From NCBI GenBank assembly GCA_017499595.2, contig CM039008.1:1178001-1242000 (forward strand): DNA of 64,000 bases, read 5' to 3'. The position numbers and the translations under genes were made by a program. This DNA comes from Psilocybe cubensis. Its lineage: Eukaryota. Below the pieces are notes generated by a model. It had not been told where the DNA came from, ran no database searches, and was given only the letters and a program-made list of their open reading frames with translations. Below, one piece after another: positions 2,851-58,533 of this stretch (positions are counted from its first letter, which is position 1; the number at the start of each line of letters is the position of its first letter).

Positions 2851-5210
<2,360 letters not shown>

Positions 5211-5709
5211 GTGCACTTTTTCCGTATTGCTGTTATGTGAAACGCAATCGCATCCTGATTGTGTCTGTGCATAGTATTTACCCAGTTATTGGTTATTTTG
5301 AGAATCAATATTTATGTATACCCGCAAATATATCCATTTCCCAAACAGTCCAATGTGGAAGCATCGCCACCTGTCTGTTGGCAGTTGATGTTGAAGGAGG
5401 AATTGTGTTATTGGATAGTTCTTTGCTCCTTTCTTCAAGTTATCAAGATATTTTCCAAGGTCTGAGACTCTTTCAAGTCATGGGAGAACGATAAAGAATT
5501 TTTAAAATGTAATAAATAGCAACGGATGCGTCTTCCAAGTCCAAATGCCAATGCCAGGTGCTTTCATGAGTGAAGATGTACTGGGACCTAGATAAGATTA
5601 GATTTAGATTAGATCATGTAAAATCTATTTATACTACTGTACAAGTCACACAAAGTGACGGCATTGGGGTAACGCGAGTGTGACAATATTCTGAAAATCG
5701 TTTTCTGCA

Positions 5710-8700: not shown

Positions 8701-9453
8701 AAGAAGCGCATACAAGCAACGCACGACGTGCTACAGCTTGAGGAGCTCAAGTGCCGTAAGCGTGTGCTACGGCGCCTCGCGTTCACTGACGCGTCCGACA
8801 TCGTCGACATGAAGGGTAGAGTCGCGTGCGAGATTAGCTCGGGTGATGAATTGCTCTTGACGGAACTTATATTTAATGGTGTCTTCAACTCCCTTGGACC
8901 GGAGCAATGTGCTGCCCTCTTAAGCTGTTTTGTCTTCACTGAAAAGGTGCGTATCTCTTTGGATTACTACTCCTTCATTCTTCATTTTTTTGGCTTTAGA
9001 GCGAACAAGCTACCAAGCTTAAGGAGGAACTGGCCGCCCCTCTCCGAGTGATGCAGGAAATCGCTAGACGGATAGCCAAAGTGTCCAAGGAGTCCAAGCT
9101 TACCATCGACGAAGATGAATATGTCTCTTCGTTCAAGGTCGAGCTGATGGACGCCGTCATGCAATGGTGTCGTGGTGCATCCTTCTCAGAGATCTGCAAG
9201 GTCCGTCCCGTCCTATCATATTTCCTTCTTGTCGCAAACACACGTTTGCTGATGATGATTCATCCTCTAGCTCACGGATCAATTTGAAGGAAGTCTTATC
9301 CGTGTGTTCAGACGGTTGGGCGAGCTTCTCCGTCAGATGGCTCAAGCCGCCAAAGTAATAGGCAATTCAGAACTAAAGGAGAAGTTTGAAAAGGCATCGG
9401 AACTCCTAGAGAGACCCAACTCGGTGATATTCTGCTCATCTTTGTATCTCTAA
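5710..9453 (+). CDS. MTR4: Ski2-like DExH RNA helicase Mtr4 (TRAMP/exosome cofactor); multi-exon, includes a GC-AG intron at 6537-6587
   Basis: [46 protein letters not shown]/arch region; DSHCT C-terminus ending [10 protein letters not shown]. Confidence 0.95.
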
Positions 9454-40775: not shown

Positions 40776-41326
40776 ATGCAAATCATCAGCTATGAGGAAA
40801 TTTTACGAATCGAAGCAGAAGTATTGGCCCCTACTTTCCCAGATCTAATACATCCTACAACTTTCCCAGAGGCCGCCTCACTTGCTTCTCAAAGACAGCA
40901 ATACGACTTGGAAATGGCTCAGTTAGTTGAGCAGACCCAAAAAATGGTCCTTTTGACCGAGAACAGGCTGATACTGGCCATCCTGGCCCTTTTCAATGAA
41001 ATTAACTGGACCACCCTGGACCCAAGGTTACTATCGTTGGCTAAAGCCAAGATTACCGAGGGTGACCAGTGGCTCAAAGCACGAGCCGTGAGTTTTCTGT
41101 TTCTTCAAGTTTCAAGTTGATACTCTTGCTTAAGATAACTAGGAGGAGACACTTCGGGATGCAGACTCAGGCAGCCCCGAGCACATATTGACCCAAGGGA
41201 TGTCCATTATAGCCAACGGCCAGATTCATATTCGAACGGTAGAGGTGAGTCACAGTGATAACTACTTTGTTTCTACACTTTCTTAGTAATGGGCAGGATC
41301 TCATACGAGAATGTCAGGATCATTAA
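40776..41326 (+). CDS. Small helical hypothetical protein (element cargo), three exons
   Basis: MQIISYEEIL..LKARA / EETLRDAD..RTVE / DLIRECQDH* joined in frame across GT-AG introns. Confidence 0.6.
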
Positions 41327-43656
41327 TAGGGTCAAGATACTACATTGTAAATAGACACTTAATTGCCTTTAAAAATGTACATTTTATTGCTTGATATGAT
41401 TGAAGAGCTTTACTGAGACCAATCACATTGGACATCAAACTCTCCTAAGTCTGGAATTGTACATAGAGATAGCTAGGAAAATCCAAAGCTCGCAGTAGTA
41501 ATGTTGGAATGCTACAGAGCTCAACGGAGCATCCCGCCGATGACACATGACGCTATACTGTCTACAGCCCACTTTGATGCTACATCCGGTTGGCAGGACA
41601 ATACGTTGAGTTACCTCCAAAAATCCGGATTTACTGATGTAACAAAGTTCTTTTTCAGTACCGTACACGCCTCCTGATCAACAACGGCATATAGAATGTC
41701 ACAATGCAACTTCCGGTTATTTTTGTCAGTTCGGATGAATGGAAGACATCTGTTTCTTTAGCACGCAGTCCGACAGTCACAAGGGTGCTTTTTTCTGCTG
41801 TTTCACTCATTCACAGGGGATACTATTATCATTTGAATAGATGAGGCTTCATAGAAGAGTCAAATGCCAGCTCATGGATGTAGCATTCAATTTTCATCGA
41901 TCGCAATGATGTCGGTAGGCATAATTAATCACATAAAGCGTGTAGATGAGAGCTGATATAGATTATGACCTCGTCATCTCAATGAAAATGACCAGATGTT
42001 GTCTGTTGAAAAGAATAAACTTTAAGCGACGTTCAATTGCATCTGAGCATCCCTAATCATCTCTTCATTGTCACCTCTAGTCGAGTTACCACTTCAGCTC
42101 CTTACACACCGTTACAACAATGGCCAAACCTCCTCCACTAGTTGTCAGGTTGATTGGGATAGGAAAATACGAGTATTACCCTTTTCTTGACGCAAAAGGG
42201 GACACCAATGCCGACGACCTTTACAATTTCCTTAACAAGGAATACAAAGATGGCAGAGAATGCGACATAAAGGTGGTCAAAGATGCTACGAAAGAGGCGA
42301 TTCTGGCAGAGCTGAGATCCCTTCGGGAACCAGTCGATCGAACCAAGGGAATAGTCGTTTTCTTTTCTAGTTACGGAGGCAGCACGGGCGAAGGCACCTC
42401 GATAATATGTCCTACGGATATTGCAAGAACAGAGAAGAGTAAAGGTATCACCGACAAAGAGCTTACGCAGTTATTTGACTCAATTGCCAAGTTCCGCGGG
42501 AAAAATATTGTAAGTCGATTACACGAATCGCCGAGTCAAACGTTGAATAAAAATTGAATATAATCACGCAGACCTTTTTCCTGGATGCCCCTTCTTTGGC
42601 CTTTGATTGGGGATGGCCAAGTTCTTTTTTTTTTTTTTTTTTTTATTTTTTTTATTTTATGTTATAGCCTCTGAGGGGTGGGCCCCTCCCTTGGCTTAGT
42701 ACTACCATTACAGTTTCTCTATATAGGTTGTAATTCTACTGTTCCATGTGTACTGTGTAAAGGAATAAAAAGTGTTGCTTATGAGAGATTACTAACATTT
42801 ATTGCGGCGTGGTGTTTTCTGCGTGGGGTGCTAGAGTTGGAGTTGAAGGTTGAGGTTTCCTCTTCCGCTCCCGATATCGAGAGACTCGACACCAGGAGCC
42901 AAAGAGAAAAATGCCAGAGTGATAGAGCCGTTCTGTGATGTTCTTGTCTTCAAACCTAATGAGAATAGAAAGTCGGTCCTTCTGGAACTCCTCCCCATCG
43001 CGACAAAGAGCCCGTATTTGCCCTCGGATATCCTGCCTAGATACCCCTGCCTCGTTTTCAAGTAATGACCATATGCTGTTTTTTGGAGTGGCGGAGTCGA
43101 AAGAGTCGCGAAGTGAATCGGCTGGGAGATCATGGACCACTATACCATGCCATGGCACATCCGAGTGAACTGTGGGTGGGTCACCAATAGTTGAATCAAA
43201 ATTAGGAAAGCAATCGGAGGCCTGAGCTGCTTGAAGAATAGTCATCGGGCGAGCTTTTATTCTAGCAGTTCCAGTGTCGTTTGCAGTGTGGATAATGAGC
43301 CTTCCTGATTTTGAGACATTAGCTCCGAGAACATGACGAGGGGGGTCCCGTGACATTGGCGAGAGCTCGCTATTGAGTCGCTCCACAAAATCAGTGAGTG
43401 GACCAGATGGCTGTGTAAGTGGAAAGTCATCCCAGGATGCAATAAGGCGATTATTTGAGGAATAATGGCGGGTTGGACCGCTCCTTGATCCGCTACCACC
43501 ACCTTCAGCTGCTTTCCCACGCACTTAGAGCGCGAGAAAAGACTGCCAGGGGTTACAAGCAATCGAGTAGAGTATCTAAAACACAAAAACGTACCTAAAA
43601 GTACACAAAACACCCAATTCTCACAACAAAACACCCACGCCAACTTAATCTGTCAA

Positions 43657-46600
43657 ATGAATGTCAACACCGGCACAGCTCGTGCCAGGAAGACAACCTT
43701 GGGAAATCCGCCTACCCCGGGTCAAAACGACCAGGCCAACACTGAGAGATCATCGCGGAGCAAAGGAACGGTGGTCAACGAAGACCTCCAACAGGTCCAG
43801 GATGCCAAAGGAGGGAGATCCATACTCGAGGAACACCAACTCCTGGTGCCAGCGGGACAAGGTCTGACGGCACACCGGGCCGCCGCTTGCTTATTCCAGA
43901 TCTCGCAAATGTCGAACAAAACGCCGCCGATAGTGATACAAGCAATGCGAGGATTGGCCTTCCTACTAGAGGAAATGGAGATCCCGCTGGCAACGCAGAC
44001 TTATCACGACGGATTCGGAGAGGAACTGGCCACATTCACGAACGAAATCCGGTCGCTAGTACAACACGCGCAGGAGAAGGTGGACCAAAAACTCGAGGAG
44101 ATCAACAAAGCGACTGCCGATCTAGTCAAGACAGCCTCAACCGCGAAGCCTCAGCAAACCCTGAACCCAGGGGCGGCCTATAGTCAGGCACTCATGAAGG
44201 GTCTACCCACGCTCAGTCAAGTGATCGTCCAGTCCAACATAGCCACAAACCCAAGGCTGCTTGCTCGCCACGGCATACGAGCACGACAGACAATGTTGGA
44301 GGGCCTAGGTAAGGACTCCAAAATAAGCACGATGGGCGATCGCGAGGCAAAGGATCATATCAACAAAGTTCTGCAGATGCTGGAACCGGAAGGGACGGTG
44401 CGTATTCGTTCTGCAATCAAACAGAGAAACGGTGGGCTACTCATCGAATTTGACGCCGATTACGGAGCGGCGTGGATCAGGGTAGAGGAAAACCGCAGCA
44501 ACCTGTGCAAGGAGCTAGGCGAAGATGTCACCACTAGAAAGCGCACCTACGAGCTGATTGCAATGGGTGCGCCTCTGTCAGCCAAGCCTGAAGACGCAGA
44601 TTTCGTGAAAGAGACGGAGGAGGCCAACCGAGTCGAAGAAGGTACCATCGTCGCGATGCGATGGGCAAAGAAAGTATCGCGACGGGCGGTAGGTCAAAAA
44701 TGCGCTCACATCATTCTCACAGTAAACGACGCCTGCAAAGCGAACAGACTCATAGCCATGGGGATGTTTGTGGCAAACAAGCGAGTGAAAGTGCAGAAGT
44801 GCAAGACCGACCCGGTAAGATGTCTTAAATGCCAAGGCTATAACCACTTTGCAAAGGAATGTACGTCGAAACATGACATCTGCGGACATTGCGGCGAGAA
44901 GGGCGGCCACCGCACCCCGGACTGTGAAAAGACATCGACGCATTGCGTCTCCTGCGACTCGGACGATCACCCGAGCTACGACAGGGCCTGTCCAGTATTC
45001 CTGAAGAAGTCAGCAGAAAAGAACGATCGCACCCCCGAGAACAAACTCCCCTTTATCCCAACGGATGAGCCATGGACATGGAGCATGGACCCGAACGTGT
45101 CAGGGTTTCTCCAGTTTCCCCTCTTTATCTTCACAGAATTATCTTATCCTTTCATTATCTTATCAATTATCTGATTAGATAGTTTATTTCTTTCATCACA
45201 GCCTTCTTGCTCCACTTCTTTCTAGTAAATTCTATATGATTCCTAGTCTTACTCATCCTTTTTCTATATGATGTCACTTTTATTCTTTAACCTTCCTTTA
45301 TGATGTAATGTAGGGAATATTCTAGAATAGCTGTAGAGTATAAATACTGGACTTGTAGGTAGCTGTAGCTTCAGCTTCAATCTCTTAGGATATCCACTAT
45401 CATTGGTGTGATCTCTTAGAACCATTGAATCTCTCTCACTCTCTTATTCTCTCTTTGCTCTCTTACTCTCCCTCTGCTCTCTCTCTCTCTCTTGCTTAAT
45501 CTTTGTTGGTGGCCTTGTCACACTGATTATAGTGTTGCCCTGACAGAAGATTGAAGCTCTCTCAAGACAACTCCACCATCTCTCTTTCAACACCAAACTC
45601 TTCACCTCTTCAACCTCTTCAACATCATTACCTCAACCTTCTTCCTCCACTTCCAACCCACCAACCTCTTCATCAACCTCTCCACCAATCTTCTTACCAA
45701 TCTCTACATCTCCACCAATCTTCAACATCCTCCTCAAGACCTTTCCTCAAGACCTTTGGCTCATCATCTTTCCTACTCTCTGTTGTGTGCTGTGTGTGAA
45801 CTTAGTAGATAGGGATACCAACTGTTGGGGCAGACACAGTCCTACTAGTGTTCTGTTTTTGGTGGTCTAGGAAATATCCAGTAACCCTGTGATCCTAGGT
45901 TTAGAGCCCTGAGTGGTGTGACAACTGGGTATCCAGTAGATAGATATTTTTTTAGAATACTTAGTATAGTTTCAAGGGCACTTTCAGTAGATAGCTTCTC
46001 CCACACACACATCAGAGAGCCTACCTACCCCTACCCATGGACATGGACCCCTCCCAATTGCCTCCCACCACTCCTTCTGTGGAAGAGCTCATGCATCAGG
46101 TCCAGCTCCTTACCCAAGAGTTGAATTTTCTTAGACAGCAGCAGCAGTCATTATCCACTCCACCACACCCTCAGCAACCAGTCAGTCAGTCACCATTACC
46201 ACCACCACCACCACCACCTGCTGCTCTAGATATTCACTCTTTCCCTACCCCTCATGTTGCCCCTTCCTGTTCACACTCTGCCATTAAAGTCTCACCTCCA
46301 GATCCATTTGATGGTTCTATGGAGAAGGCAGAAAACTTCCTCAGTCAGCTTAAATTATATTTCTATGGGAAAGGGATTACAGATGACTTTCAGAAAGTTA
46401 TTTGTGCTCTATCTCATATGAAAGGAGGTACTGCTGGGAAGTGGGCATATGAGAAGACTAAAGTAATAGACAATGCTCAGTCCCAAGAAGGTCTTTGGGC
46501 TGACTTTGTTTATGAATTTAGGGAAGTGTTTGCAGATCCAGACCCCTCCAACACAGCTAAGCATAAAATGCATATGCTCAAGCAAGGCAGACAGACTGCT

Positions 46601-49600
46601 GATGAGTATGTTGCTAGCTTCAGGGCTCTGATCTCAGATACTGGGTATAATGATGCTGCTTTGGTAGACCAATTCAAGGCTGGGCTTAATGAAAATCTCA
46701 GGAATGCAGTCTACTATGTTCCTGACATGCCCAAAACCTTGGATGGATGGATTAAATGGAGTACTAGGCTAGATAGGCAGTGGAGACAGAGTGAGGCCTT
46801 TACCAAGTCTCTTTCCTCCTCCTCTTCTTCTCCCTTTCTTAAAGCCCCAACTCCCAAGGCTGTTCCTAAGCCTACTCCAAATCCTCCAGTCTTTTCCAAC
46901 AGCAGCTCAAGGACCTTTGGTGCTCAGGCAAAGCAACCAGATGTAGTTCCCATGGAGGTTGACTCTGGATGGAAGTCAGTTAGGCCAATTGTTTGCTTCA
47001 AGTGCAGAAAGCCTGGTCATAAGGCTGTAAACTGCAGGTCATCAGTTAACATCAATGCTATGACCCATGAAGAACTGGCTGACTACTTTGGGAAATTAAT
47101 CTTGGAAGGCAAGGAGCAGAAAGATGAGGAAAAGAAAAATTTTTAGAAGCACCATTGGTGAAAGACATGTCCCAATGGAATAGATTTAATGTACTAGAAA
47201 ATGAAATTGACAGACTTGATTCTCAGTCTTCAGATTCTGGTGCAGAAATCATGTCTTCTTCTTCCTCTCTTTCTACCTTCCCTGAAAAGATCTACATCCT
47301 CAACCATAATCCTAAAACCTCTACCCATTTGTCTGTCATCTTAAAGACAATGGACACAGAGAAAAGGTTATCTGTTGATGCTTTGCTTGATTCTGGAGCT
47401 ACTGGCCTCTTTCTGCATTCTGGTTTTGTGAAGTATCATAATCTCAACACAAGGAAACTTCCTAGGGCCATTCCAGTCTATAATGTTGATGGTACTCTCA
47501 ACAAGAGTGGCTCTATCCATGAGGAAGTAGACTTAATTATGGTACACAAAAACCATACAGAAAGGGCCACCTTTGCTGTTTGTGACTTGGGAGACAAATC
47601 TGCTATCATTGGACATACTTGGCTTTGGCACCATAATCCAGATGTTGATTGGAAGACAGGGGATGTCCAGTTTATTAGATGTCCCTCTGACTGCCAAATG
47701 GAAGCCAAAAGAGCCAGAAGAAAGAGGCAGAGAATAGCTGCAGTCAAAAGGAGGAAACTCCCTCAATTTGATGAAGAAGAAGATGATTCTATTGAAGATT
47801 CTTCTGATTCTGAGATTGAGCCTGAGGATAGAATTTTTATCTCATACCTTCATCCTCAGAAGCAGTCTATTAATGCTACTTCTACTATGTCTCAAAGATT
47901 AGCAGAAGAGTCTCATCAGCAAGCTGATTCCCCTAAGAAAACCTTTGAAGAAACTGTTCCTAAGCACTATCATCAGTTTAAAGGTGTTTTTTCAAAGGAA
48001 TCTTTTGATAGGCTACCAGACAGAAAGCCTTGGGATCATGCTATTGAGCTGAAACCTGGTTCTGAACCTTACAGATCCAAGATTTATCCTCTTTCTCCCA
48101 ATGAACAAAAGGAACTTGATGCCTTTTTAGAGGAAAATCTGAAGTCTGGCAGGATTAGACCCTCCAAGTCACCTATGGCCTCCCCTGTATTCTTTGTCAA
48201 GAAGAAGGATGGATCTCTTAGGCTTGTCCAGGACTATAGGAAACTGAATGAAATGACCATCAAGAACTCCTACCCCCTTCCATTGATTTCTGACATTATC
48301 ACCAAACTCAGCAAAGCCAAATACTTCACCAAACTTGATGTTAGGTGGGGATTTAACAATGTCAGAATCAAAAAAGGAGATGAATGGAAAGCAGCCTTTA
48401 GAACCAATAGAGGGCTGTTTGAACCATTGGTCATGTTCTTTGGTTTAACCAATAGTCCTGCTACCTTCCAAAATATGATGAATGATATCTTTATTGAGCT
48501 CATTGATGGAAATGTTGTCATTGTCTACATGGATGACATTTTAATTTTCACTGAGACTCTTGATCATCATAGAGAGGTAGTCAAGCAAGTTCTGCAAATC
48601 TTAGAACAGAACAAACTCTACCTTAAAGCAGAGAAATGTGAATTTGAAAAGGAAAAGATTGAATATCTTGGACTAATCATTTCACAAGGCAGGATTGAGA
48701 TGGATCCTGTCAAGGTAGAGGGAGTTTCTAAATGGCCTGAACCTGAAAATGTCAAGGATGTCCAATCATTCTTGGGATTTGTTAATTTTTATAGAAGGTT
48801 CATAGAGGATTTTGCAGACATTGCTAAGCCCCTTCATGAATTGACAAAGAAAGGAACAGTCTGGAGATGGAGTCTTAGACAACAGGAAGCCTTTGACCAG
48901 TTAAAGAAGAAAGTCACTTCTTCACCTGTCTTGATTTTCCCTGATGATAACAAGCCATATAAAGTTGAAGCAGACAGTTCAGATTATGCTACTGGGGCTG
49001 TTTTATCTCAGGAAGGATCAGATGGGAAATGGCATCCTGTAGCCTTTATGTCTAAGAGTCTATCTGAAGTAGAAAGGAATTATGAGATCCATGACAAAGA
49101 GATGCTGGCTATTATCAGAGCACTAGATGAATGGAGACATTATCTTGAAGGAACCCAACATTCCTTTGAGATTTGGACAGACCACAAAAACTTAGAGTAC
49201 TTTATGGTTGCCCAAAAGCTCAGCAGAAGGCAAGCCAGATGGTCACTCTTCCTGTCCAGATTTGATTTTACTCTTCATCATAGGCCTGGTAAAAGATCTC
49301 TTAAGCCAGATGCTTTGTCTAGGAGACCAGATCATAAAAAGGGAGAGGATGATAACCAAAATGTAGTTCTCCTCAAACCTTCCTACTTTAAAATCCAGGC
49401 TCTCAAGCAGGGTCATGCTACCATTACTGGTGCAGAAAATGATCTTCTTAAGAAGATTAGAGAAGCTAAGGAGATGGATGAAAAGGTGGTCAAGGCAGTT
49501 CAGGAGCTCAAGAAATCTTCTACCAAGAAGATTGAAGGACAGGAATGGTCAGAAGAACAAGGCCTTATTCTCTACAGGGGGAAGGTGTATGTTCCCAAGG

Positions 49601-51641
49601 ACAAAGATCTTAGAAGAAAGATTGTGGAACTGCACCATGATGCCTTCATTGCTGGACATCCAGGGAAATGGAAGACAATTGAGCTAGTCTCTAGGAATTA
49701 TTGGTGGCCAGGAATGTCACATTTTATTGCAGCCTATACCAGAGGTTGTGATAGATGCAACAGAACCAAAACCTTTCCAGCCAAACCTCTTGGCCTTTTA
49801 ATTCCTACTGAGATTCCCTCTGATGTCTGGCAATGCATCTCTGTGGACTTTATTATGGGGTTACCAGAATGTCAAGGGTATAATGCCATTATGGTGGTTG
49901 TGGATAGACTTAGTAAAATGATCCACATTATCCCTACTACAGATGAAGTCACTTCTGAAGGGACAGCCAGACTATACAGAGATTATGTCTGGAAACACCA
50001 TGGCTTACCCATTAAAATTCTGTGTGATAGAGGTCCACAGTTTGTCTCAAGGTTTATGAAAGAACTCAACTCAATACTTGGTATCCAGACAGCCTCATCT
50101 ACAGCCTACCATCCCCAAACTGATGGTCAGACTGAAAGAGTTAACCAAGAAATTGAGCAGTATCTTAGACTCTTTATAAACCATAGACAAGATGATTGGG
50201 TTGAATGGTTAGCTCTAGCTGAATTCTCTTATAACAATAGAGTTCAGGCTTCAACCAGGCAGACACCATTTATGCTCAATAATGGCAGACATCCCAGAAT
50301 GGGCACTGAACCCCTCAGAGATAGTAAAATGGACACTGTGGATACCTTTGTGAAAAATATGGAAGAAGCCAGGATAGAAGCAGAGTCTGCACTTAGAAAA
50401 GCTGCTGATGATATGGCTAAATTCTATAATAGACACAGAGGTACTCCAACTCAGTACAAAGTTGGGGATTTGGTATGGTTGGATGGCAAGGACCTCAAAA
50501 CTGATAGGCCCTCCAAGAAATTGGATGATAAAAGATATGGGCCTTACAAAATTACCAAAGTTATTAGCCCTAATGCCTATGAGCTTAAGCTGCCATCTAC
50601 CATGAAAATCCATCCAGTGTTCAATGTGGTTAAACTTCTACCTTATCACCCAGATATTGTAGGAAGAAAGCCTCCTTCTAGACCACCACCTGTCATTCAA
50701 GGAGAAAGTCCTGAGTGGGAAGTTGAATTTATCAAGGACAGCAGACTTTTTAGAAACAAACTTCAATATTTGGTCAAGTGGAAGAACTATCCTAATGAAG
50801 AATGCACTTGGGAGCCTGCAGAGCATTTGAAAAATGCTTCTAAGGCTATCAAGGACTTCCATGCCAAACATCCTTCAGCACCTAGAAGGATTTCTGCTGT
50901 GACCTTTGATAGACTTTCTTTCACTCCTATTATTAACTTTACTGAACCTCCTCCTCTTCTTAAACCCTCTAAACTAACCCATCCATGTGCACATTGTGGA
51001 AAATGTGCCTTAGAGAGGGGGTGATGTCAGGGTTTCTCCAGTTTCCCCTCTTTATCTTCACAGAATTATCTTATCCTTTCATTATCTTATCAATTATCTG
51101 ATTAGATAGTTTATTTCTTTCATCACAGCCTTCTTGCTCCACTTCTTTCTAGTAAATTCTATATGATTCCTAGTCTTACTCATCCTTTTTCTATATGATG
51201 TCACTTTTATTCTTTAACCTTCCTTTATGATGTAATGTAGGGAATATTCTAGAATAGCTGTAGAGTATAAATACTGGACTTGTAGGTAGCTGTAGCTTCA
51301 GCTTCAATCTCTTAGGATATCCACTATCATTGGTGTGATCTCTTAGAACCATTGAATCTCTCTCACTCTCTTATTCTCTCTTTGCTCTCTTACTCTCCCT
51401 CTGCTCTCTCTCTCTCTCTTGCTTAATCTTTGTTGGTGGCCTTGTCACACTGATTATAGTGTTGCCCTGACAGAACGACGCCCCAACAACTTTCAAAAGA
51501 AAGGAGTTCGCGAGGGGACAATCACCCCGATGGACCGTGGAACCGCCCACAACATCGAGGAAGGACCTCCCCAAGACGCCGCAACAGAGCCCAGAACCAG
51601 AGCAAATGGGAAAGGAAGGAGGCTCAGCGGGTGATATCTAA
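43657..51641 (+). CDS. LINE ORF1 (gag-like, three CCHC knuckles); coding parts 43657-45097 and 51478-51641, split by the LTR element
   Basis: RCLKCQGYNHFAKEC, CGHCGEKGGHRTPDC, CVSCDSDDHPSYDRAC; frame restored when the Gypsy element and one TSD copy are removed. Confidence 0.9.
45098..45545 (+). repeat. 5' LTR (TATA box at 45339)
   Basis: Direct repeat of 51025-51472; no difference seen by eye. Confidence 0.97.
46037..47146 (+). CDS. Gypsy Gag (capsid plus CCHC knuckle)
   Basis: PDPFDGS, LKQGRQTADEYVASF, VPMEVD, CFKCRKPGHKAVNC. Confidence 0.95.
   Translation: MDMDPSQLPPTTPSVEELMHQVQLLTQELNFLRQQQQSLSTPPHPQQPVSQSPLPPPPPPPAALDIHSFPTPHVAPSCSHSAIKVSPPDPFDGSMEKAENFLSQLKLYFYGKGITDDFQKVICALSHMKGGTAGKWAYEKTKVIDNAQSQEGLWADFVYEFREVFADPDPSNTAKHKMHMLKQGRQTADEYVASFRALISDTGYNDAALVDQFKAGLNENLRNAVYYVPDMPKTLDGWIKWSTRLDRQWRQSEAFTKSLSSSSSSPFLKAPTPKAVPKPTPNPPVFSNSSSRTFGAQAKQPDVVPMEVDSGWKSVRPIVCFKCRKPGHKAVNCRSSVNINAMTHEELADYFGKLILEGKEQKDEEKKNF
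47155..51024 (+). CDS. Gypsy Pol (protease, RT, RNase H, integrase, chromodomain); -1 frame relative to gag
   Basis: LLDSGAT, YMDD, EADSSDYATGAVL, HH-CC zinc motif, CDRGPQF, DGQTER, GPY module, WEVEFIKDSR..YLVKWKNY..TWEP chromodomain. Confidence 0.97.
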   Translation: MVKDMSQWNRFNVLENEIDRLDSQSSDSGAEIMSSSSSLSTFPEKIYILNHNPKTSTHLSVILKTMDTEKRLSVDALLDSGATGLFLHSGFVKYHNLNTRKLPRAIPVYNVDGTLNKSGSIHEEVDLIMVHKNHTERATFAVCDLGDKSAIIGHTWLWHHNPDVDWKTGDVQFIRCPSDCQMEAKRARRKRQRIAAVKRRKLPQFDEEEDDSIEDSSDSEIEPEDRIFISYLHPQKQSINATSTMSQRLAEESHQQADSPKKTFEETVPKHYHQFKGVFSKESFDRLPDRKPWDHAIELKPGSEPYRSKIYPLSPNEQKELDAFLEENLKSGRIRPSKSPMASPVFFVKKKDGSLRLVQDYRKLNEMTIKNSYPLPLISDIITKLSKAKYFTKLDVRWGFNNVRIKKGDEWKAAFRTNRGLFEPLVMFFGLTNSPATFQNMMNDIFIELIDGNVVIVYMDDILIFTETLDHHREVVKQVLQILEQNKLYLKAEKCEFEKEKIEYLGLIISQGRIEMDPVKVEGVSKWPEPENVKDVQSFLGFVNFYRRFIEDFADIAKPLHELTKKGTVWRWSLRQQEAFDQLKKKVTSSPVLIFPDDNKPYKVEADSSDYATGAVLSQEGSDGKWHPVAFMSKSLSEVERNYEIHDKEMLAIIRALDEWRHYLEGTQHSFEIWTDHKNLEYFMVAQKLSRRQARWSLFLSRFDFTLHHRPGKRSLKPDALSRRPDHKKGEDDNQNVVLLKPSYFKIQALKQGHATITGAENDLLKKIREAKEMDEKVVKAVQELKKSSTKKIEGQEWSEEQGLILYRGKVYVPKDKDLRRKIVELHHDAFIAGHPGKWKTIELVSRNYWWPGMSHFIAAYTRGCDRCNRTKTFPAKPLGLLIPTEIPSDVWQCISVDFIMGLPECQGYNAIMVVVDRLSKMIHIIPTTDEVTSEGTARLYRDYVWKHHGLPIKILCDRGPQFVSRFMKELNSILGIQTASSTAYHPQTDGQTERVNQEIEQYLRLFINHRQDDWVEWLALAEFSYNNRVQASTRQTPFMLNNGRHPRMGTEPLRDSKMDTVDTFVKNMEEARIEAESALRKAADDMAKFYNRHRGTPTQYKVGDLVWLDGKDLKTDRPSKKLDDKRYGPYKITKVISPNAYELKLPSTMKIHPVFNVVKLLPYHPDIVGRKPPSRPPPVIQGESPEWEVEFIKDSRLFRNKLQYLVKWKNYPNEECTWEPAEHLKNASKAIKDFHAKHPSAPRRISAVTFDRLSFTPIINFTEPPPLLKPSKLTHPCAHCGKCALERG
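51025..51472 (+). repeat. 3' LTR
   Basis: Direct repeat of 45098-45545. Confidence 0.97.
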
Positions 51642-51646
51642 ATCAG

Positions 51647-54600
51647 ATGAGTGACATACCCACCTCAGAGCAGAGTACCGCCCAAATCAGACTGCTGCAG
51701 ATAAATCTCAACAAATCAGAAGTGGCACACCTCGAGACACTCAACGACAATCTACACGACCGATTCGACATTGTTCTCCTACAAGAACCGCATATCACCC
51801 ACTTCAAAAACATACGCACCAACAACAATTTCCGGCCGGTGTATCCGTCAAATAGACATATGTCGACAACACGCTCTGGCATCTGGGTCAACAAAAGGCT
51901 CGATACCAACAACTGGAGTGAAATCACTTTCCCCGAGTCCAACGACATCACAGCAATACGGATTCGATGCGAAAGAGGTAATGTCTACATTTTCAACATC
52001 TACAATCCGGGACACGAGGGCAGCGCAATCCGACAACTCCAGAAATACCTGCTGGACAATCAAGAAGCAATAACAAATGACAACACACACATGATATGGG
52101 CCGGCGACTTCAACCTTTACCACCCGATGTGGGACCGTGACGAGGACACCCGCCTCTTCACAAGGACTGCACTGGCAGATGCCGAAAAGCTGATCGAGCT
52201 GCTCGACCACCACGACATGCACATGCCACTGCCCAAAGGCCATCCAACTCTGGAACACATGGTCTCGAAACGCCTCTCACGCCCCGACAACGTCTTCTGC
52301 TCCTCAAGCTTAACACCCTACGTCATCCGTTGCGAAGTGCTCTATGAGGCAAGGCCAGCCAACACTGACCATTACCCCATCGTCACCACGTTAGACACGA
52401 ACTACACGAAGATCGATGAAGCCATGACCAGAAACTTCAAGCTAGTTAATTGGGACAAGTTTAACTCAGCACTGAGGACGCGTCTACAACGTGAACAGCA
52501 ACCTAGGGCGTTGACAACCAAGGAAGAAATAGAGGATACGGTGAGAGTACTGACCTCGGCCTTGCAGGATACCATAGCAAGCGAGGTCAAACTACGAAAG
52601 CCGCTTCCAGACAAGAAAAGATGGTGGACAGGTGATGTAGAAACTGCCAAACGATACAAGAACAGACTGAGCAGCCTTCACAATAGGTACCGAGCAATGC
52701 CAGACCATCCATGCCACCAGGAATACAAGGCCGCCAAACGAGCATTCGCAAGACTGGTCATCGAGGCAAAGAAGAACCACTGGGAGGACTGGCTGCTCGA
52801 CGCCGAAGGCGGGGACATCTGGACGGCAAACCGGTACTTTAAGAACCCAGCCGGCGACGGCGGCCGACCGCGCATACCCTCGCTTCACGTTACAAATGAG
52901 TACGACGAAACGGAGGAAGTTACCACCAATGAGGAGAAAGCGCAAGTATTTGCGAGAGCGTTCTTCCCCAAAAAACCGGATCAGTCCTCAGTACCAGCAA
53001 ACTACCAGTACCCTGAAGCTCTGCCAGACTTGGGTAAAGTAACGAGGAGTCAAATAACCAGGCAGATCCGCCGGCTGGCACCACACAAAGCACCAGGAAT
53101 GGACGAAATCCCAAACATAGTATTGCAAAAGACCGCCCCAATCATAGCCGATCACCTCGTCTGCCTATACAATGCAATACTTGACCTGAATTACTACCCG
53201 GACTCATGGAAGCACTCCATCACGGTCGTGCTGCGCAAGCCCGGAAAGCCTAACTACAAGATGGCGAAGGCATACCGCCCGATTGCCCTGCTGAACACCC
53301 TCCCGAAGGTCCTGACGGCAATAATAGCAGAGCGGTTAAGCTATTTAACAGAAACTCACAAATTACTTCCAGACACACACTTCGGAGGGAGACCAGGGCG
53401 TACAACATCGGACGCCATGCACTATCTTACAGACAAGGTCAAGTCAGCGTGGAGAAGAGGTAAAGTAGCATCAATACTCTTCCTGGATGTTGAAGGCGCC
53501 TTCCCGAACGCAGTCACGGACCGGCTTATCCACAATCTGAGGAAACGCCGAATACCAAAGAAATACATCGATTTCATCGAGAATCTACTCAAAGGGAGGA
53601 AAACAAAACTGAGATTCGACGACTTCGTATCGGCGTTAATGGAAATTGACAATGGAATTGGACAAGGTGACCCACTTTCAATGATTTTGTATATAATCTA
53701 TAACGCAGATCTGCTCGAAATTGTCAACCGAGAGGATGGCGAGGACGCGATAGGCTACGTGGATGATGTCACGATCATTGCAACGGGCGACACCACTGAC
53801 GACACAACCGACAAACTAAGTATCATAATGAATGATGAAGGCGGTGCACAAACATGGAGCGAAGAACACAACTCCAACTTCGAAGTATCAAAACTTGCAA
53901 TAATGCATATGGACCCTCGTGATCCGGACACACTTGAACACCCCAGGCTGGAGGTAAAAGGCGAACTAGTCAAACAGGTGAACAACTTTCGTTGTCTTGG
54001 GTTTCAGATTGACTGCCGTTTGCAATGGAAGGTACACCTCCAAAAAGCGACAGAAAAAGCCACCAGTTGGCTATCAAACTTCCGAAGACTGTCAAAACCG
54101 AGCACCGGAATCCAATCAAAACTCATGCGGCAACTCTACATCACGACCATTATCCCTCAACTATCATATGGAATCGACGTATGGTACACCCCACCCACAA
54201 AACCCACCGGCTTCCGGCGAAACACAGGATCTGTTGCAGCCCTGCGGCAGATGACCATGATACAAAGAAAAGCCACGCTCATCATCACGGGCGCAATGAG
54301 AACCACCCCGACAGAATTGCTGGACGCCCATGCAGGTGTCCTGCCACTCGAGCTCACGCTGCTGAAAATATGTCACAGGGCAATAACGAGATTGTGCACA
54401 CTGCCGCCGACACACCCGTTACACAACACAGTGCGAAAGGCATCAACAAAACAACAACGTCGACACAAATCTCCGATATATCAACTCCTCAGGATTTTCG
54501 ACTTGAGACCGGACGAACTAGAAACCATACACCCGTACACAACATCGCCGGAATACACACCGCCCTTCAAAATCGTAATCGCAAAGTGCCGGGAGGAATC

Positions 54601-55600
54601 AATAAAAATTGAGACGAAATGCCTAGCTAAGTACCGAATATACTCAGATGGCTCAGGTCATGACGGTCGAATAGGTGCCGCGGCGGTACTGCTAAAAACA
54701 CGCAAGGATCGGCATGGAACCACATTACGACTACACCTCGGAACTAAAGAGGAGCACAACACCTATGAAGCGGAAGGCGTGGGCGGAATACTTGCACTCG
54801 AACTAGCCAAGAAGGAGAACCCAGAGGAAAACGATGAGATTGCAGTATTCAGCGACAACCAGTCCATGCTGCAGAATGCCAGCACACCCAAAGCTAAGTC
54901 GGGCCAGCACATTGCATTAAAGCTGATTGATGCAGCGAGGGAAATACAGGGGAGAGTTACACTCTACTGGATCTCCGGCCACTCAGACGTACTGGGCAAT
55001 GAACGAGCAGACGAAGAGGCCAAGAGAGCAGCGGATGGCGACAGTAGCCCGATAGACACCTTGCCCGAGTCACTGCAACACGCTCTGCCAAAGAGCGCAT
55101 CAGCAGAACGTCAAGCGTACCACGAAGAGCTAATGACCATATGGACATCGCGTTGGAACGAATCCCGACGAAAAATCACCTTCAAAAACAAGAAAATCGA
55201 TTCAAGCTTCCCATTCACGAAGTTCAGGAAAACCGCACATAAGCTAAATAGAGCACAAGCCAGTGTCCTAATCCAACTGCGAACGGGGCACATTCCTTTG
55301 AACTCACATATCAGCAAGTTCGACCCACACTTCAACCAATTCTGCCCAAGATGCAACGAGAGACGATCGGGCGAGAGGGCCACGGAGACCGTAGAACACT
55401 TCCTGTTCGAATGCAGAGCACACAAAGAGCTACGACAGGACATGTGGACCAAACTAGGGAAGAAAATCATGAACATAGAAGAACTCACGACGAATGTCAC
55501 GAACGCAAGAGCATTAATCAAATATATCGCGAGGACGAAGCGACTAAAACCGTACAAAGAAGACATACTCGTTAGAGGAATACAAGAAATGGAAGAGTAA
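51647..55600 (+). CDS. LINE ORF2: APE endonuclease, reverse transcriptase, RNase H, C-terminal zinc motif; intact 1317 aa
   Basis: LQINLN, LLQEP, GDFNL, TDHYPI; YRPIALL, QGDPLS, YVDD; IYSDGSG, WISGHSDVLGNERADEEAK; CPRC..ETVEHFLFEC. Confidence 0.97.
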   Translation: MSDIPTSEQSTAQIRLLQINLNKSEVAHLETLNDNLHDRFDIVLLQEPHITHFKNIRTNNNFRPVYPSNRHMSTTRSGIWVNKRLDTNNWSEITFPESNDITAIRIRCERGNVYIFNIYNPGHEGSAIRQLQKYLLDNQEAITNDNTHMIWAGDFNLYHPMWDRDEDTRLFTRTALADAEKLIELLDHHDMHMPLPKGHPTLEHMVSKRLSRPDNVFCSSSLTPYVIRCEVLYEARPANTDHYPIVTTLDTNYTKIDEAMTRNFKLVNWDKFNSALRTRLQREQQPRALTTKEEIEDTVRVLTSALQDTIASEVKLRKPLPDKKRWWTGDVETAKRYKNRLSSLHNRYRAMPDHPCHQEYKAAKRAFARLVIEAKKNHWEDWLLDAEGGDIWTANRYFKNPAGDGGRPRIPSLHVTNEYDETEEVTTNEEKAQVFARAFFPKKPDQSSVPANYQYPEALPDLGKVTRSQITRQIRRLAPHKAPGMDEIPNIVLQKTAPIIADHLVCLYNAILDLNYYPDSWKHSITVVLRKPGKPNYKMAKAYRPIALLNTLPKVLTAIIAERLSYLTETHKLLPDTHFGGRPGRTTSDAMHYLTDKVKSAWRRGKVASILFLDVEGAFPNAVTDRLIHNLRKRRIPKKYIDFIENLLKGRKTKLRFDDFVSALMEIDNGIGQGDPLSMILYIIYNADLLEIVNREDGEDAIGYVDDVTIIATGDTTDDTTDKLSIIMNDEGGAQTWSEEHNSNFEVSKLAIMHMDPRDPDTLEHPRLEVKGELVKQVNNFRCLGFQIDCRLQWKVHLQKATEKATSWLSNFRRLSKPSTGIQSKLMRQLYITTIIPQLSYGIDVWYTPPTKPTGFRRNTGSVAALRQMTMIQRKATLIITGAMRTTPTELLDAHAGVLPLELTLLKICHRAITRLCTLPPTHPLHNTVRKASTKQQRRHKSPIYQLLRIFDLRPDELETIHPYTTSPEYTPPFKIVIAKCREESIKIETKCLAKYRIYSDGSGHDGRIGAAAVLLKTRKDRHGTTLRLHLGTKEEHNTYEAEGVGGILALELAKKENPEENDEIAVFSDNQSMLQNASTPKAKSGQHIALKLIDAAREIQGRVTLYWISGHSDVLGNERADEEAKRAADGDSSPIDTLPESLQHALPKSASAERQAYHEELMTIWTSRWNESRRKITFKNKKIDSSFPFTKFRKTAHKLNRAQASVLIQLRTGHIPLNSHISKFDPHFNQFCPRCNERRSGERATETVEHFLFECRAHKELRQDMWTKLGKKIMNIEELTTNVTNARALIKYIARTKRLKPYKEDILVRGIQEMEE

Positions 55601-55880
55601 GCGAAGGGATCAGAATGCACAAAAGTCGCCAAGGAAAGGCGCACCACAGGGACAACAAAGAGAGGAGTAGAGGAAGCGCGAAGGGAGACTCTGCCTACAA
55701 AGAGGCGCCAGAGGCGCTACTCAAAACGGCCTAGGAAAGGCCGGATCCAGCAAGGGGACGTGAGGGCCCCTTGGGATGCTTGAGTAGGTCGAAGACGGCA
55801 ATCTCACAGCGACAGGAGCTGTTAGGTAGAATAAGTAGCACAAGGCCAAAGGAGGGGCCCTCCCCTTAGAGGCAATAACA

Positions 55881-55921
<41 letters not shown>

Positions 55922-58533
55922 GGGTTGGACGAGTGACGTGAGGGCGGGTCTTAACAGGGCCTCCAGCAATTGGGGCTGGGGATGTCCTCTGCGGCGTGTG
56001 AGCTGGCTGAGCCACTGGTGTAGTTTTGGCCACCGTAGCGTATGACCGGGGCTCAGTAACCCTTTCAGGGTTTTGGGGGTGATATTCCGGGTCTGCCGGG
56101 AATAAGGTTGAGTGTAGCAGCAGAGCGGCGTGCATCGTTCGGTCACTGAGTGTGACGGTACCGTGAGAAATGCTCTGTATAATCGCGACCGTTGCCAGAA
56201 TGGAGTCCAGCAGAGTCTCGAGGTGAGCAACCTGTCCGGCAACAATGTCCGAAGACACAGCTGGCGGGGGCAGAGTAGATGGGGGTGCAGCATCGGTGTT
56301 TGGGGCACTGTGTGGGTCCGCCAATGGTATGGGTGTGTTGACAGAGTGCTGTGGAGAGGGACCCGGAGGGGCATCCACTGATTTCCGAGGGTGAGTTCTG
56401 CCTTTCTTTATAAGGCGCTTCGTATGGGGTGACCTCTTGGTCTGTAGCAGCTTTCGGCCATCACTCTCTGACTCTGTTGGGCCTGGGGTTGAGTCTGGAG
56501 AGCGCTGTCGCCGTGTACCCAGCAGCGGGGCCGGTGAGCTGGCACGCTGACCATGTTGATGGTGGTGGTTAGTGCGTGAGAACATCATGGCCAAGTTCAT
56601 TCGTCGTTGTTGCACCTCAGCAAATTCCGTCCAATCGCAAAGCATTCACCACTGCTGTCATTGATGCTTTACGCTCAGAGAAGGAATCGATATCAACGCT
56701 CACTGTGAAATCGTTCGCTGCAAAGATACACAGTTTTATGTGCGTCACAATATATCACATAATTTCAATGTATTTATGATCAGGTTTTTGCTCATGCAGG
56801 CCCAATGGAATAGAAATTGATTGCCACGGACAGAATTCTGACCGCCTTCTATTCAATCCAGCAGGAGGATGGGCCCACCCTGCCTTCATAGCAGGCAGAG
56901 TCGAAGAAAGCAGAAGAAAGCCGACGAAACGACTTAATAAGCGTAACCATCTTTGCTGGAGCCGCACACGGTATAGAAAATGGGACGACATTTAACGTCT
57001 ATGCAAATCATGTCGACACGAACCAGAAACCCATTGGCCATCTCGAGGTTGTTGACAGATACCATCCCGTTATTAACTCCACCACGACTAAGCTAGAACT
57101 TCCTCTCGACACAAAATTACCTGTAGTATTTTTTGTCGTGGAGACAGGTTCCTTATCTCGAGCTTTGAATGTCTACGCTGATAAGGTGGCTATGTCGATG
57201 GTCAAGGGTCCAAGGTTGAACATGGTCAACGAATCTATGGCGCATATTATTCTCAGGAATGCCAACGACAAAGTCGAGGTCTTGTGGAATGACTTTCCAA
57301 AAAGTGGCCTCGATTCAGGGAAGAATCTCGTTCATAATATCGCTGTATTGAACAACCCTGCGGATTTGGAAAAGGCACTCAGTAATGCTGCATGGTTTAC
57401 TCACCGTGTCAGTTATATGCGCAACCCGATGTCTTCGTGTGCATTCTTCGAGGCAGAATTGAAGGCGGTCGATGAAAATCAGGAACCGACTGGAAAGAAT
57501 TTGTTACTCGATGACGCCGTCACCCTGGATATCACTCAGGACAACAATAGAACTACTTACTGCCTCTTGCTTTCAAACAAAACCGATCACGAAATCTGGC
57601 CGTACGTGTTCATTTGTAACCCAAGCGATTTTAGCATCCGTGGGTAATTCTGGAATGTCTGATTTATTATACCTTGCTGATAAATGCTATATTAGGTCCT
57701 TGGTATACCGCGACGAAGGCTTTATCTCCAAAAATGATGGGAGCAACGAACACAGTTGAAATTGGATGCGGAGATGAGGATGATCTGGCATTCGAATGGA
57801 CTGCGGACCAGGGAGTAGATGTGGCATATATCAATATTATTGCTACAAAGGAACGTACCAACTTTTCTTGCTTGACGCAAAGCGAAACTACAACCGTCGA
57901 GAGACTCAGAGGTATGTTCTGCCTAATCAAATTGCTGGCACACAGACTAAGGTATTTTATCCAGAAGTAGCCCCAAATCAATCGATTTCGACGCAGGCAA
58001 ACGAGGAACCACGCAAGCGTCGTGGTATGTCAATCAAAAAGGACTGGGAGATGGCGCAAATTCCAATCACACGAAAATATGTTCAGAGAACGAGTCGTAC
58101 TGTTTCTCCATCAGCATCGAGGAAACCTTTCTGGAATAAGTTTGGCAAATAGGTTGTACAAGATAGCATTTTATACCAGCCTATTTTCCGCACTAATCAG
58201 CATAAACTCTGTTTTTTGAACATCTTGCGTTTGGTTTGATGAAAGAGTCAGACTTGAAAGCTTTCCAATGAAGAAGATAGAATCATTGAAAAGAATCCGA
58301 GATGCTCAAGTCATCCTAGAAGTGCCAGTAAGCGGTGAACGGGAAGCAAGGGAATACCTGTAGACATTGTTACATATCGCTAATTCGACGTGACGAAGTC
58401 CGGGGCGACACGGATTTTACCGATGAACTGTACAGATAACAAATGCCGTTTTCGGCACGCAAACCTTGATTTGGCCCTGTGACCTTTGGTTACGGGCAAG
58501 TTTCGCTCGACATCCTCAAGACTATCCTCAAAA

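Follow-up and report, generated by a model that had tools for sequence, protein, structure and literature searches.

The stretch of Psilocybe cubensis DNA analysed here, a window of 64,000 nucleotides, contains a complete chromovirus, probably of the Tf1/sushi type (a Ty3/Gypsy LTR retrotransposon of the Metaviridae), that was inserted very recently and that lacks CpG dinucleotides altogether. At 45098-51472 the computed count is 0, against 267.5 expected from base composition (6,375 bp, G+C 41.07%), and no part of the element holds a CpG, from the promoter and leader through gag and pol to the two LTRs. An initial annotation, made by reading the letters, had described an intact, young Gypsy element with apparently zero CpG where a few hundred would be expected by chance; the computation bears this out, and the element can be placed more narrowly among the chromoviruses. 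It interrupts the first open reading frame of a LINE and is organised as follows (coordinates in the window).

43657..55917, +, host LINE receiving the insertion, poly(A) up to about 55917
43657-45097 and 51478-51641, +, LINE ORF1, 534 aa with the element removed
45093..45097, +, left copy of the target-site duplication (TSD) GAACG, holding the last CpG ahead of the element (45096)
45098..45545, +, 5′ LTR, 448 bp, TGTCAG...CTGACA, 0 CpG, TATA-like site at 45339
45373..45383, +, 11 nt in the LTR complementary to the PBS (complementarity only), about 34 nt 3′ of the TATA site
45548..45558, +, PBS of the putative self-priming type, 11 nt, 2 nt past the 5′ LTR, reverse complement of 45373-45383
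46037..47146, +, gag, 369 aa, with a CCHC zinc knuckle at 46994-47035 (gag aa 320-333)
47137..47143, +, candidate −1 frameshift heptamer AAATTTT, abutting the gag stop TAG (47144-47146)
47155..51024, +, pol, 1,289 aa, PR-RT-RNaseH-IN-chromodomain
47383-47400, +, PR motif LLDSGA (aa 77-82)
48196-48681, +, RT (RVT_1, aa 348-509), YMDD at 48526-48537
48868-49263, +, RNase H (aa 572-703)
49600-50115, +, integrase (aa 816-987), HHCC and D,D,E
50464-50649, +, SH3_Tf2-1
50716-50865, +, chromodomain (PF00385 Chromo, E=2.5e-15, aa 1188-1237), C-terminal to the integrase
51012..51021, +, polypurine tract AGAGAGGGGG, just 5′ of the 3′ LTR and overlapping the end of pol
51025..51472, +, 3′ LTR, 448/448 identical to the 5′ LTR
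51473..51477, +, right copy of the TSD GAACG, holding the first CpG past the element (51476)
51647-55600, +, LINE ORF2 (APE, RT, RNase H)

The assignment to Ty3/Gypsy follows from TG...CA LTRs with a TSD, an integrase located after the RT, and a gag with capsid and CCHC knuckle (Ty3_capsid E=3e-10, Retrotrans_gag E=3.5e-9, zf-CCHC E=3.3e-4); the chromodomain at the integrase C-terminus identifies a chromovirus. Besides the LTR termini, the gag knuckle and the C-terminal chromodomain, the element shares with fungal Tf1/sushi-type chromoviruses the 5-bp TSD, the PR-RT-RNaseH-IN order and the SH3_Tf2-1 fold; its 11-nt self-complementary PBS would be of their self-priming type. Both reading frames are open, the catalytic motifs (LLDSGA, YMDD, HHCC, D,D,E) are intact and the two LTRs are identical, all as initially annotated. 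Judged from its complementarity to the PBS, the segment at 45373-45383 is the presumed 5′ end of the transcript for Tf1-type self-priming and hence the putative start of transcription. No stop interrupts the pol frame from 47128 onwards, and the relation of this frame to that of gag fits a −1 shift, for which AAATTTT is the candidate site. Run X14, only guessed to be RNA, was discarded as evidence of transcription: one of its six small pieces (45334-45564) starts 5′ of the presumed start. A comparison of the LTR with a phage collection gave no match and is uninformative.

By a Poisson estimate, a complete lack of CpG would arise by chance with a probability of about 1e-116; taking the observed/expected ratio (O/E) for CpG in the host as the baseline gives about 1e-95. 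The CpG-free run measures 6,380 nt and is bounded by the CpGs at 45096 and 51476, both within TSD copies; CpG thus returns exactly at GAACG, as had been claimed. The second-longest such run anywhere in the 64 kb measures 238 nt. The two parts of the LINE, which had been described as CpG-rich, do carry CpG, with an O/E of 0.93 and 0.95, and the values for the flanks are 0.85 (left 5 kb) and 0.91 (right 5 kb).

The avoidance of CpG is context-dependent and reflects no general shortage of C or G; GpC, said to be common in the element, occurs 215 times. Arginine is indeed encoded by AGA and AGG only (57 and 34 codons; CGN 0/91), and all NCG codons are absent. The 17 relatives whose ORF reaches 800 aa or more encode arginine 1,011 times by CGN and 431 times by AGR. 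Across codon boundaries, C is followed by G in 0 cases against 89.3 expected from 309 C-ending and 480 G-starting codons. Third-position C is found in 0% of the 374 codons that precede a G-starting codon and in 25.7% of the 914 other codons; the corresponding figures for the 17 relatives are 25.6% and 33.0%. TpG (1.22) and CpA (1.14) are only slightly in excess of the host values (1.15 and 1.13), and no signature of fresh deamination is visible in these two dinucleotides of the element.

In relatives of the element, CpG loss normally accompanies decay. We examined 74 near-full-length relatives from metagenomes (38-58% amino acid identity) and counted as intact those whose pol ORF reaches 1,000 aa or more. 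The 11 intact relatives have a CpG O/E of 0.71-1.30 (median 0.97); in the 63 broken ones the median is 0.57 and the lowest value 0.03. Across the set, CpG O/E is correlated with ORF integrity (Spearman rho 0.70, P=6e-12). Since intact relatives are CpG-normal and CpG-poor ones are broken, an element with an O/E of 0 and a 1,289-aa ORF is a clear outlier, unlike any of the 11 intact relatives. Among the 691 in-frame stops of the broken relatives, 139 (20%) align to arginine, 159 (23%) to tryptophan and 65 (9%) to glutamine. The share at arginine led us to reject the idea that the stops arose mostly from CGA to TGA; decay proceeds by general C-to-T/G-to-A changes and not purely at CpG. Because tryptophan and glutamine stops arise outside CpG, being CpG-free lifts only part of the mutational risk.

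Insertions of the family are polymorphic between strains, a point which the initial annotation had proposed to check. In raw Illumina reads of another strain (X19), the element has a depth of about 1,480 versus about 560-600 for the left flank, corresponding to about 2.6 copies; the surrounding LINE is nearly missing (depth about 20). Where reads pass beyond the LTR edges, their loose ends lead into a mixture of other flanks. From the high depth of the element, the near absence of the LINE and the mixed flanks, we conclude that the family occupies other sites in X19. The X1 contigs have little or no LINE depth in any bin (0 to at most 0.44), and the insertion site is vacant in both X19 and X1. 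Family copies in X1 differ at 6 of 2,820 and 7 of 2,779 bases (about 99.8% identity). Of the 39 listed family variants, none creates a CpG; 19 of them change a base to C or G, and by expectation 4.6 of these should have created one (P=0.005). The indels listed in X19 all fall within the non-coding leader.

We consider it somewhat probable that methylation and mutation directed at CpG cleared the lineage of this dinucleotide, leaving a "stealth" element that cannot be methylated; that such pressure acts in this host, that the element is unmethylated and that it benefits from this are inferred. That CpG is the relevant methylation context is suggested by other Agaricomycetes (PMC6191308) rather than by this genome: in Pleurotus, CpG-context 5mC is reported to be concentrated on TEs (PMC6191308), and repeats of Agaricomycotina are described as carrying a surplus of CpG transitions, ascribed to 5mC deamination (PMC3318451). 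Agaricomycete 5mC lies almost wholly at CpG and targets transposons, which mushrooms normally silence and wear down in this way, and methyl-CpG readily mutates to TpG/CpA. CpG-directed pressure of this kind has most likely acted on the lineage over a long period. With a functional gag-pol under selection, only protein-preserving changes would have been retained, such as arginine CGN to AGR, NCG to NCH, and no C ahead of a G-starting codon. The resulting element would leave CpG methyltransferases and methyl-CpG hypermutation nothing to act on, and could not be CG-methylated even when its chromodomain steers integration to repeat-rich chromatin, here another transposon; this freedom would help it to remain intact and mobile. 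With 0 CpG in 6,375 bp, it lacks the context presumably required by the host's maintenance methyltransferases.

The initial annotation had suggested a lineage that escaped CpG methylation by purging its target. The total absence of CpG, the association of CpG loss with decay in relatives, the strain-dependent insertion sites and the avoidance of CpG among family variants agree with this. The LINE speaks against a strong form of the idea: it is also intact, poly(A)-tailed and polymorphic between strains while being CpG-normal, so that CpG-lessness is unnecessary for recent activity in this genome. A bolder reading, which is possible and which we advance tentatively, is that a lineage of "methylation-proof" mushroom chromoviruses has lost every CpG from its whole genome, including coding sequence, through recoding by natural selection, as a counter-defence that takes away what the host's CpG methylation and methyl-CpG hypermutation act on. 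If so, it could enter heterochromatin via its chromodomain and yet remain transcribable and undecayed.

Elements with related properties have been described. ONSEN has no symmetric sites for maintenance methylation and, according to its authors, circumvents MET1 and CMT3 (PMC3907296). The two retrotransposons are alike in offering no maintenance-methylation sites; as described, however, this concerns only the LTR of ONSEN, at 28% G+C, whereas here it concerns all 6,375 bp at 41% G+C, 1,658 codons included (PMC3907296). ONSEN is also reported to be still open to CHH methylation by RdDM, and it is a plant Copia, whereas the present element is a fungal Gypsy. In basidiomycete TEs, Horns et al. 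(2012, PMC3318451) described CpG-depleted decaying copies and a "RIP-like" hypermutation at TpCpG, and noted that TpCpG is scarce in Microbotryum TEs where C-to-T would be nonsynonymous; for the three Agaricomycotina that they analysed, they found no clear RIP-like signal. CpG is the mutational target in repeats there as here, and the paucity of TpCpG in Microbotryum represents the same kind of co-evolution. The cases described are of partial depletion or dead copies, whereas the present element is intact and its depletion complete. Animal RNA viruses and retroviruses, finally, suppress CpG strongly but not totally, and the sensor is an RNA-binding restriction factor. They resemble the element as parasites that shun a dinucleotide recognised by host defence, and differ in kingdom, in the defence (an RNA-binding sensor instead of DNA methylation) and in the partial extent of suppression.

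DNA methylation counts among the main defences against transposons, and the mutations that it causes are seen as slowly killing them. The element bears on how far transposons can evolve beyond the reach of this defence: the known example, ONSEN, concerns a 440-bp promoter, and here an autonomous element of 6.4 kb and about 1,660 codons is free of the target dinucleotide with no domain lost. We know of no earlier full-length autonomous transposon shown to be fully rid of its host's methylation target. The article texts searched contain no account of an autonomous fungal TE wholly without CpG, nor any of TE methylation in Psilocybe. The element and its CpG-containing neighbours form a natural experiment in a culturable fungus with many sequenced strains, and its promoter and coding sequence, a natural CpG-free cassette, could be used in basidiomycetes as an expression backbone that resists methylation.

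Among the other explanations, one is that the CpG-less state merely marks where strong CpG-directed mutation has left an old lineage and confers no present advantage. RNAi, H3K9 methylation or some other mechanism would then control the element, and its recent activity would be unrelated to CpG content. Mutation alone can indeed go far: dead copies have an O/E of 0.03-0.08 in other genomes (L108, L060) and of 0.005-0.04 in G001 (L095, L170). We dropped the idea that an equilibrium under mutation alone cannot approach zero CpG, as L095 retains 2 CpGs in 8,962 bp of dead sequence, and since dead copies reach 0.005 in this way, CpG loss need not have been selected for as such. The equally young and intact, CpG-normal LINE and the low copy number of the family point in the same direction. 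We nevertheless consider such a neutral origin unlikely, as all 11 intact relatives have an O/E of at least 0.71, mutation pressure usually killing an element before its CpGs are exhausted; as 91 of 91 arginine codons of the AGR type are impossible to reach by C-to-T transitions and require selection among rare transversions; and as new CpGs are avoided among the family variants.

Quite improbable, in our view, is a recent horizontal arrival from a host with extreme CpG-directed mutation or a CpG-poor genome. The low copy number, the identical LTRs and the strain-specific sites would fit such an arrival, as would the lack of a close relative in named genomes, where the best match, from Lyophyllum shimeji, has 55-57% identity. 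The closest pol proteins have 61-85% amino acid identity, those at 84-85% coming from metagenomes and sequencing runs, and a relative about 88% identical occurs at very high depth in run X13. Searches for close relatives at the DNA level gave 42-60% amino acid identity in metagenomes (80 loci kept of 595 confirmed), at most 59% in genome contigs (4 loci) and at most 53% in two viral-contig scans. Against a horizontal arrival, the family is about 99.8% identical in other strains, where the host flanks differ by about 0.5%, so that nothing suggests identity across species, and the CpG-free state of a donor would require the same explanation.

Selection at the level of RNA or cDNA, by a host factor that senses CpG in RNA or in unintegrated cDNA, is highly improbable. 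Some animal viruses are restricted by a CpG-sensing host factor, and in the element every transcribed part avoids CpG and UpA is also low (0.69); UpA is, however, equally low in host sequence (0.71), and U3, which lies 5′ of the presumed start and acts in the 5′ LTR as promoter without entering the RNA, is CpG-free as well. U3 is nonetheless transcribed from the 3′ LTR. We know of no fungal factor that senses CpG in RNA or cDNA and found none in the literature searched.

A sequencing or assembly artefact, such as miscalls at methylated CpG, is rejected as having a negligible chance of being correct: miscalls predict stops and missense changes, not 91 clean AGR codons and open frames of 369 and 1,289 aa, and the X19 Illumina reads and the contigs of other runs independently cover the element at an identity of at least 99%, with no listed variant that restores a CpG.

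A dinucleotide count of the whole window found no CpG in the Ty3/Gypsy element (45098-51472, + strand; 6,375 bp, 41.07% G+C), against 267.5 predicted from its base composition, while GpC occurs 215 times; both the zero and the abundance of GpC had been read from the sequence by the initial annotation. By a Poisson estimate, the probability of such an absence is about 1e-116. The 64-kb window overall has 2,628 CpGs (O/E 0.79), and the 5-kb flanks of the element have an O/E of 0.85 on the left and 0.91 on the right. The CpG-free run is 6,380 nt long, the second-longest in the window being 238 nt, and it is bounded by CpGs at 45096 and 51476. Since each of these lies inside one copy of the target-site duplication (TSD), the depletion matches the borders of the element to the base, and CpG indeed returns right at GAACG. 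The absence is thus real, exact and far beyond chance. We exclude a sequencing or assembly artefact because the frames are open, other runs cover the element at at least 99% identity, and independent Illumina reads and contigs have no listed variant that restores a CpG.

The absence extends to codon choice. In the 1,660 codons of gag and pol, arginine is encoded by AGA (57) and AGG (34) and never by CGN, so that the claimed exclusive use of AGR holds for 91 of 91 codons, and TCG, CCG, ACG and GCG each occur zero times. Codon junctions of the type C|G are also missing, where 89.3 would be expected from 309 C-ending and 480 G-starting codons. The adjoining LINE, by comparison, has CGN in 77 of 130 arginine codons and 148 such junctions. 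In pol, none of the 374 codons before a G-starting codon has C in third position, compared to 25.7% of 914 codons elsewhere; C is replaced there by T (47.9% vs 33.3%) and A (32.6% vs 22.9%). Relatives of the element have no such void.

The features of the element and of the LINE into which it is inserted are as follows.

Features of the nested insertion (element on the + strand)
45098-45545: 5' LTR, 448 bp, starting TGTCAG and ending CTGACA
45339: TATA-like site inside the 5' LTR
45373-45383: 11-nt stretch about 34 nt downstream of the TATA-like site, putative transcription start
46037-47146: gag, 369 aa, matching Ty3_capsid, Retrotrans_gag and zf-CCHC
47137-47143: heptamer AAATTTT, directly 5' of the gag stop
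47155-51024: pol, 1,289 aa, -1 frame relative to gag (frame open from 47128), with LLDSGA, RVT_1 with YMDD, RNase H, integrase with HHCC and D,D,E, SH3_Tf2-1 and chromodomain
51012-51021: polypurine tract, adjoining the 3' LTR
51025-51472: 3' LTR, 448 bp, the same as the 5' LTR at every position
Both sides of the LTR pair: TSD GAACG, 5 bp
From 51647: LINE ORF2, 1,317 aa, APE-RT-RNase H
Ending near 55917: LINE poly(A) run of about 35 nt

With LTRs, TSD, gag, pol domains and polypurine tract all present, the element is, judging from its sequence, a complete chromovirus, and structurally an ordinary member of the Tf1/sushi type. The open reading frames, intact catalytic motifs and identical LTRs that had been noted at first sight are all there. 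The 11-nt stretch at 45373-45383 is the exact reverse complement of 45548-45558, two bases past the LTR, which would be the arrangement of self-priming Tf1-type elements if transcription starts at the putative site.

Removing the element and one TSD copy in silico restores a LINE ORF1 of 534 aa that ends at 51641. The LINE has a CpG O/E of 0.93-0.95, in agreement with the earlier description of it as CpG-rich. It also looks like a recent, strain-specific insertion, as its ORF1 (without the Gypsy) and ORF2 are intact, it has a poly(A) tail and it is absent from two of the sequencing runs. We mapped the reads or contigs of four runs to the window. X19 (raw Illumina reads of another strain) and X1 (contigs) lack 41640-55917, the block with the LINE and its nested Gypsy, and both break off at 41639-41641 with loose ends. 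LINE bins are almost empty in X19 (about 8-19 reads per orientation over 51841-55842) and have zero or near-zero depth (at most 0.44) throughout in X1. Yet X19 has about 670-880 reads per orientation on the element and about 250-320 on the left flank, equivalent to about 2.6 copies per flank, and hundreds of its reads run beyond the LTR edges on both sides into a mixture of other sequences (consensus agreement 0.34-0.37). Depth and mixed edges together place the family at other sites in this strain, with the nest absent; the insertion polymorphism between strains that the initial annotation had proposed to look for therefore exists. This chromovirus is intact, young and present in few copies, and its sites of insertion vary from strain to strain.

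The X1 element contigs differ from the window at 6 of 2,820 and 7 of 2,779 bases, and its flank contigs by about 0.5%. The listed X19 indels (8 further rows apart) are confined to the leader (45603-46020), leaving gag and pol free of them. None of the 39 variants listed (1,128 further rows apart) creates a CpG. In 19 of them the new base is C or G; from the TpG, CpA, GpG and ApG frequencies of the element, 4.59 creations would be expected (P(0)=0.0053). Loose-end and inserted strings from relatives of the element, which are short, have no CG either. The contigs of X13 contain a relative that is about 88% identical (30 differences in 240) over 48222-51472, with differences almost all in third codon positions and none creating a CpG among those listed. 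Its contig depth of 3,000-9,000, against about 3.5 for P. cubensis-like flank contigs of the same run, may reflect either a family with many copies in a different organism or RNA in abundance.

A protein search with the element's pol gave 2,963 matches among 8,000 scored candidates. The closest proteins (84-85% identical) came from sequencing-run and metagenome sources, and the closest from a named species, Lyophyllum shimeji, was 55-57% identical. The comparison at the DNA level covered more distant relatives, namely 80 metagenome loci (42-60% identity), viral-contig loci (at most 53%) and four genome-contig loci (at most 59%). Whole-locus CpG O/E of the 80 had a median of 0.63 (range 0.07-1.22), with one below 0.1. 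After re-alignment of all loci to pol, we kept the 74 that matched 1,000 or more residues of the query with an identity of 38% or higher. The 11 whose pol ORF reaches 1,000 aa or more had an O/E of 0.71-1.30 (median 0.97) and the 63 broken ones of 0.03-1.12 (median 0.57); longest ORF and O/E were correlated (rho 0.70, P=6e-12). Within this clade, therefore, intact copies are CpG-normal and CpG-poor copies are dead, a rule that the element breaks with an O/E of 0 and an ORF of 1,289 aa.

In the database genome G001, two intact reverse-transcriptase loci have an O/E of 0.94-0.96, and the broken loci L170 (0.044) and L095 (0.005; 2 CpGs in 8,962 bp) represent extreme CpG-specific decay of dead copies. 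The stop spectrum of the broken relatives cuts the other way, against CpG-only decay: 691 in-frame stops in 62 of them include 159 aligned to W, 139 to R and 65 to Q, indicating general C-to-T/G-to-A decay in which only the arginine share is CpG-dependent.

In the cited parts of the sources, Pleurotus 5mC is mostly in CpG and concentrated on transposons (PMC6191308, which also cites premeiotic methylation of repeats in Coprinus), and repeats of the Agaricomycotina that Horns et al. analysed have an excess of CpG transitions, which these authors ascribe to 5mC deamination (PMC3318451). Under CpG-directed methylation and mutation, every CpG would be a liability to a transposon lineage: its methylation would silence the element, and it would mutate fast, turning an arginine CGN into stop, Trp, Cys, His or Gln. 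A lineage that replaced CGN by AGR and NCG by NCH and avoided C|G junctions would become immune to both, although CGN to AGR is a transversion and so would need selection among rare variants. The chromodomain may direct the element to repeat-rich chromatin, the target here being another transposon, and an unmethylatable state might be especially useful to an element with such a habit. We argue that the CpG-free state is maintained and not the mere remnant of decay, given that only AGR codons are used, that codon choice depends on context and that the variants avoid new CpGs. Escape from methylation by purging its target is the best available explanation, and somewhat more likely than not.

That the state is a neutral scar of mutation pressure we consider unlikely. 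It is conceivable because dead copies elsewhere reach an O/E of 0.005-0.08 and because the CpG-normal LINE is equally young, but it fails to explain why this is the only lineage to have shed all its CpGs and remained intact. Recent arrival by horizontal transfer, which would fit the few copies and the absence of close relatives among named sources, is more doubtful still, as it merely passes the question on to the donor, and no cross-species identity is seen in the strain data. CpG sensing at the RNA level found no support and is very improbable.

Partial parallels to escape by purging exist. The authors of the ONSEN study, in its cited part, read the lack of symmetric methylation sites in the LTR of this plant Copia element as circumventing maintenance methylation (PMC3907296); there, the lack is confined to a promoter about 440 bp long with 28% G+C, whereas here all 6.4 kb at 41% G+C are CpG-free. 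Microbotryum transposons, in the cited part of Horns et al. (PMC3318451), have few TpCpG at positions of nonsynonymous risk, a partial version of the same idea. Full-text searches of the main articles turned up no description of a fungal transposon that is autonomous and entirely free of CpG.

A host exon (6895-7839) matches a Psilocybe cubensis UniRef entry at 100% identity (next match Galerina, 97%). The window also carries an SPT5 exon, an MTR4-like helicase and a Plavaka transposase ORF, which fit an Agaricales genome. The latter (36559-38157, 532 aa, open) matches Plavaka transposase (E=1.4e-52), a DNA transposon typical of Agaricomycetes, and DUF6830; it lies about 7 kb upstream of the nest, with normal CpG (O/E about 0.78). 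Between X19 and the window over 36500-56499, differences are skewed (C>T at 293 and G>A at 270 places vs T>C at 113 and A>G at 138), a pattern compatible with the X19 strain having older paralogues of the window's repeats that have decayed by C-to-T change.

Two groups of database records drew our attention. In record OZ255840.1 (G001), whose title names a Lapillicoccus MAG chromosome (6.65 Mb), 62 reverse-transcriptase matches cluster at 4.4-6.65 Mb, where G+C is 40-50%, compared to 66% at 0.9 Mb. Apparently, eukaryotic DNA of fungal type has here been either fused with an actinobacterial genome or wrongly labelled as one. Many IMG/VR "viral genomes" (UViG; L081-L166) of 5-7 kb are fungal-type chromoviruses, 33-53% identical to the element's pol and several of them broken. 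A large further IMG/VR group (26-32% identity) matches query residues 235-786 only, which take in the RT-RNase H part together with some sequence upstream.
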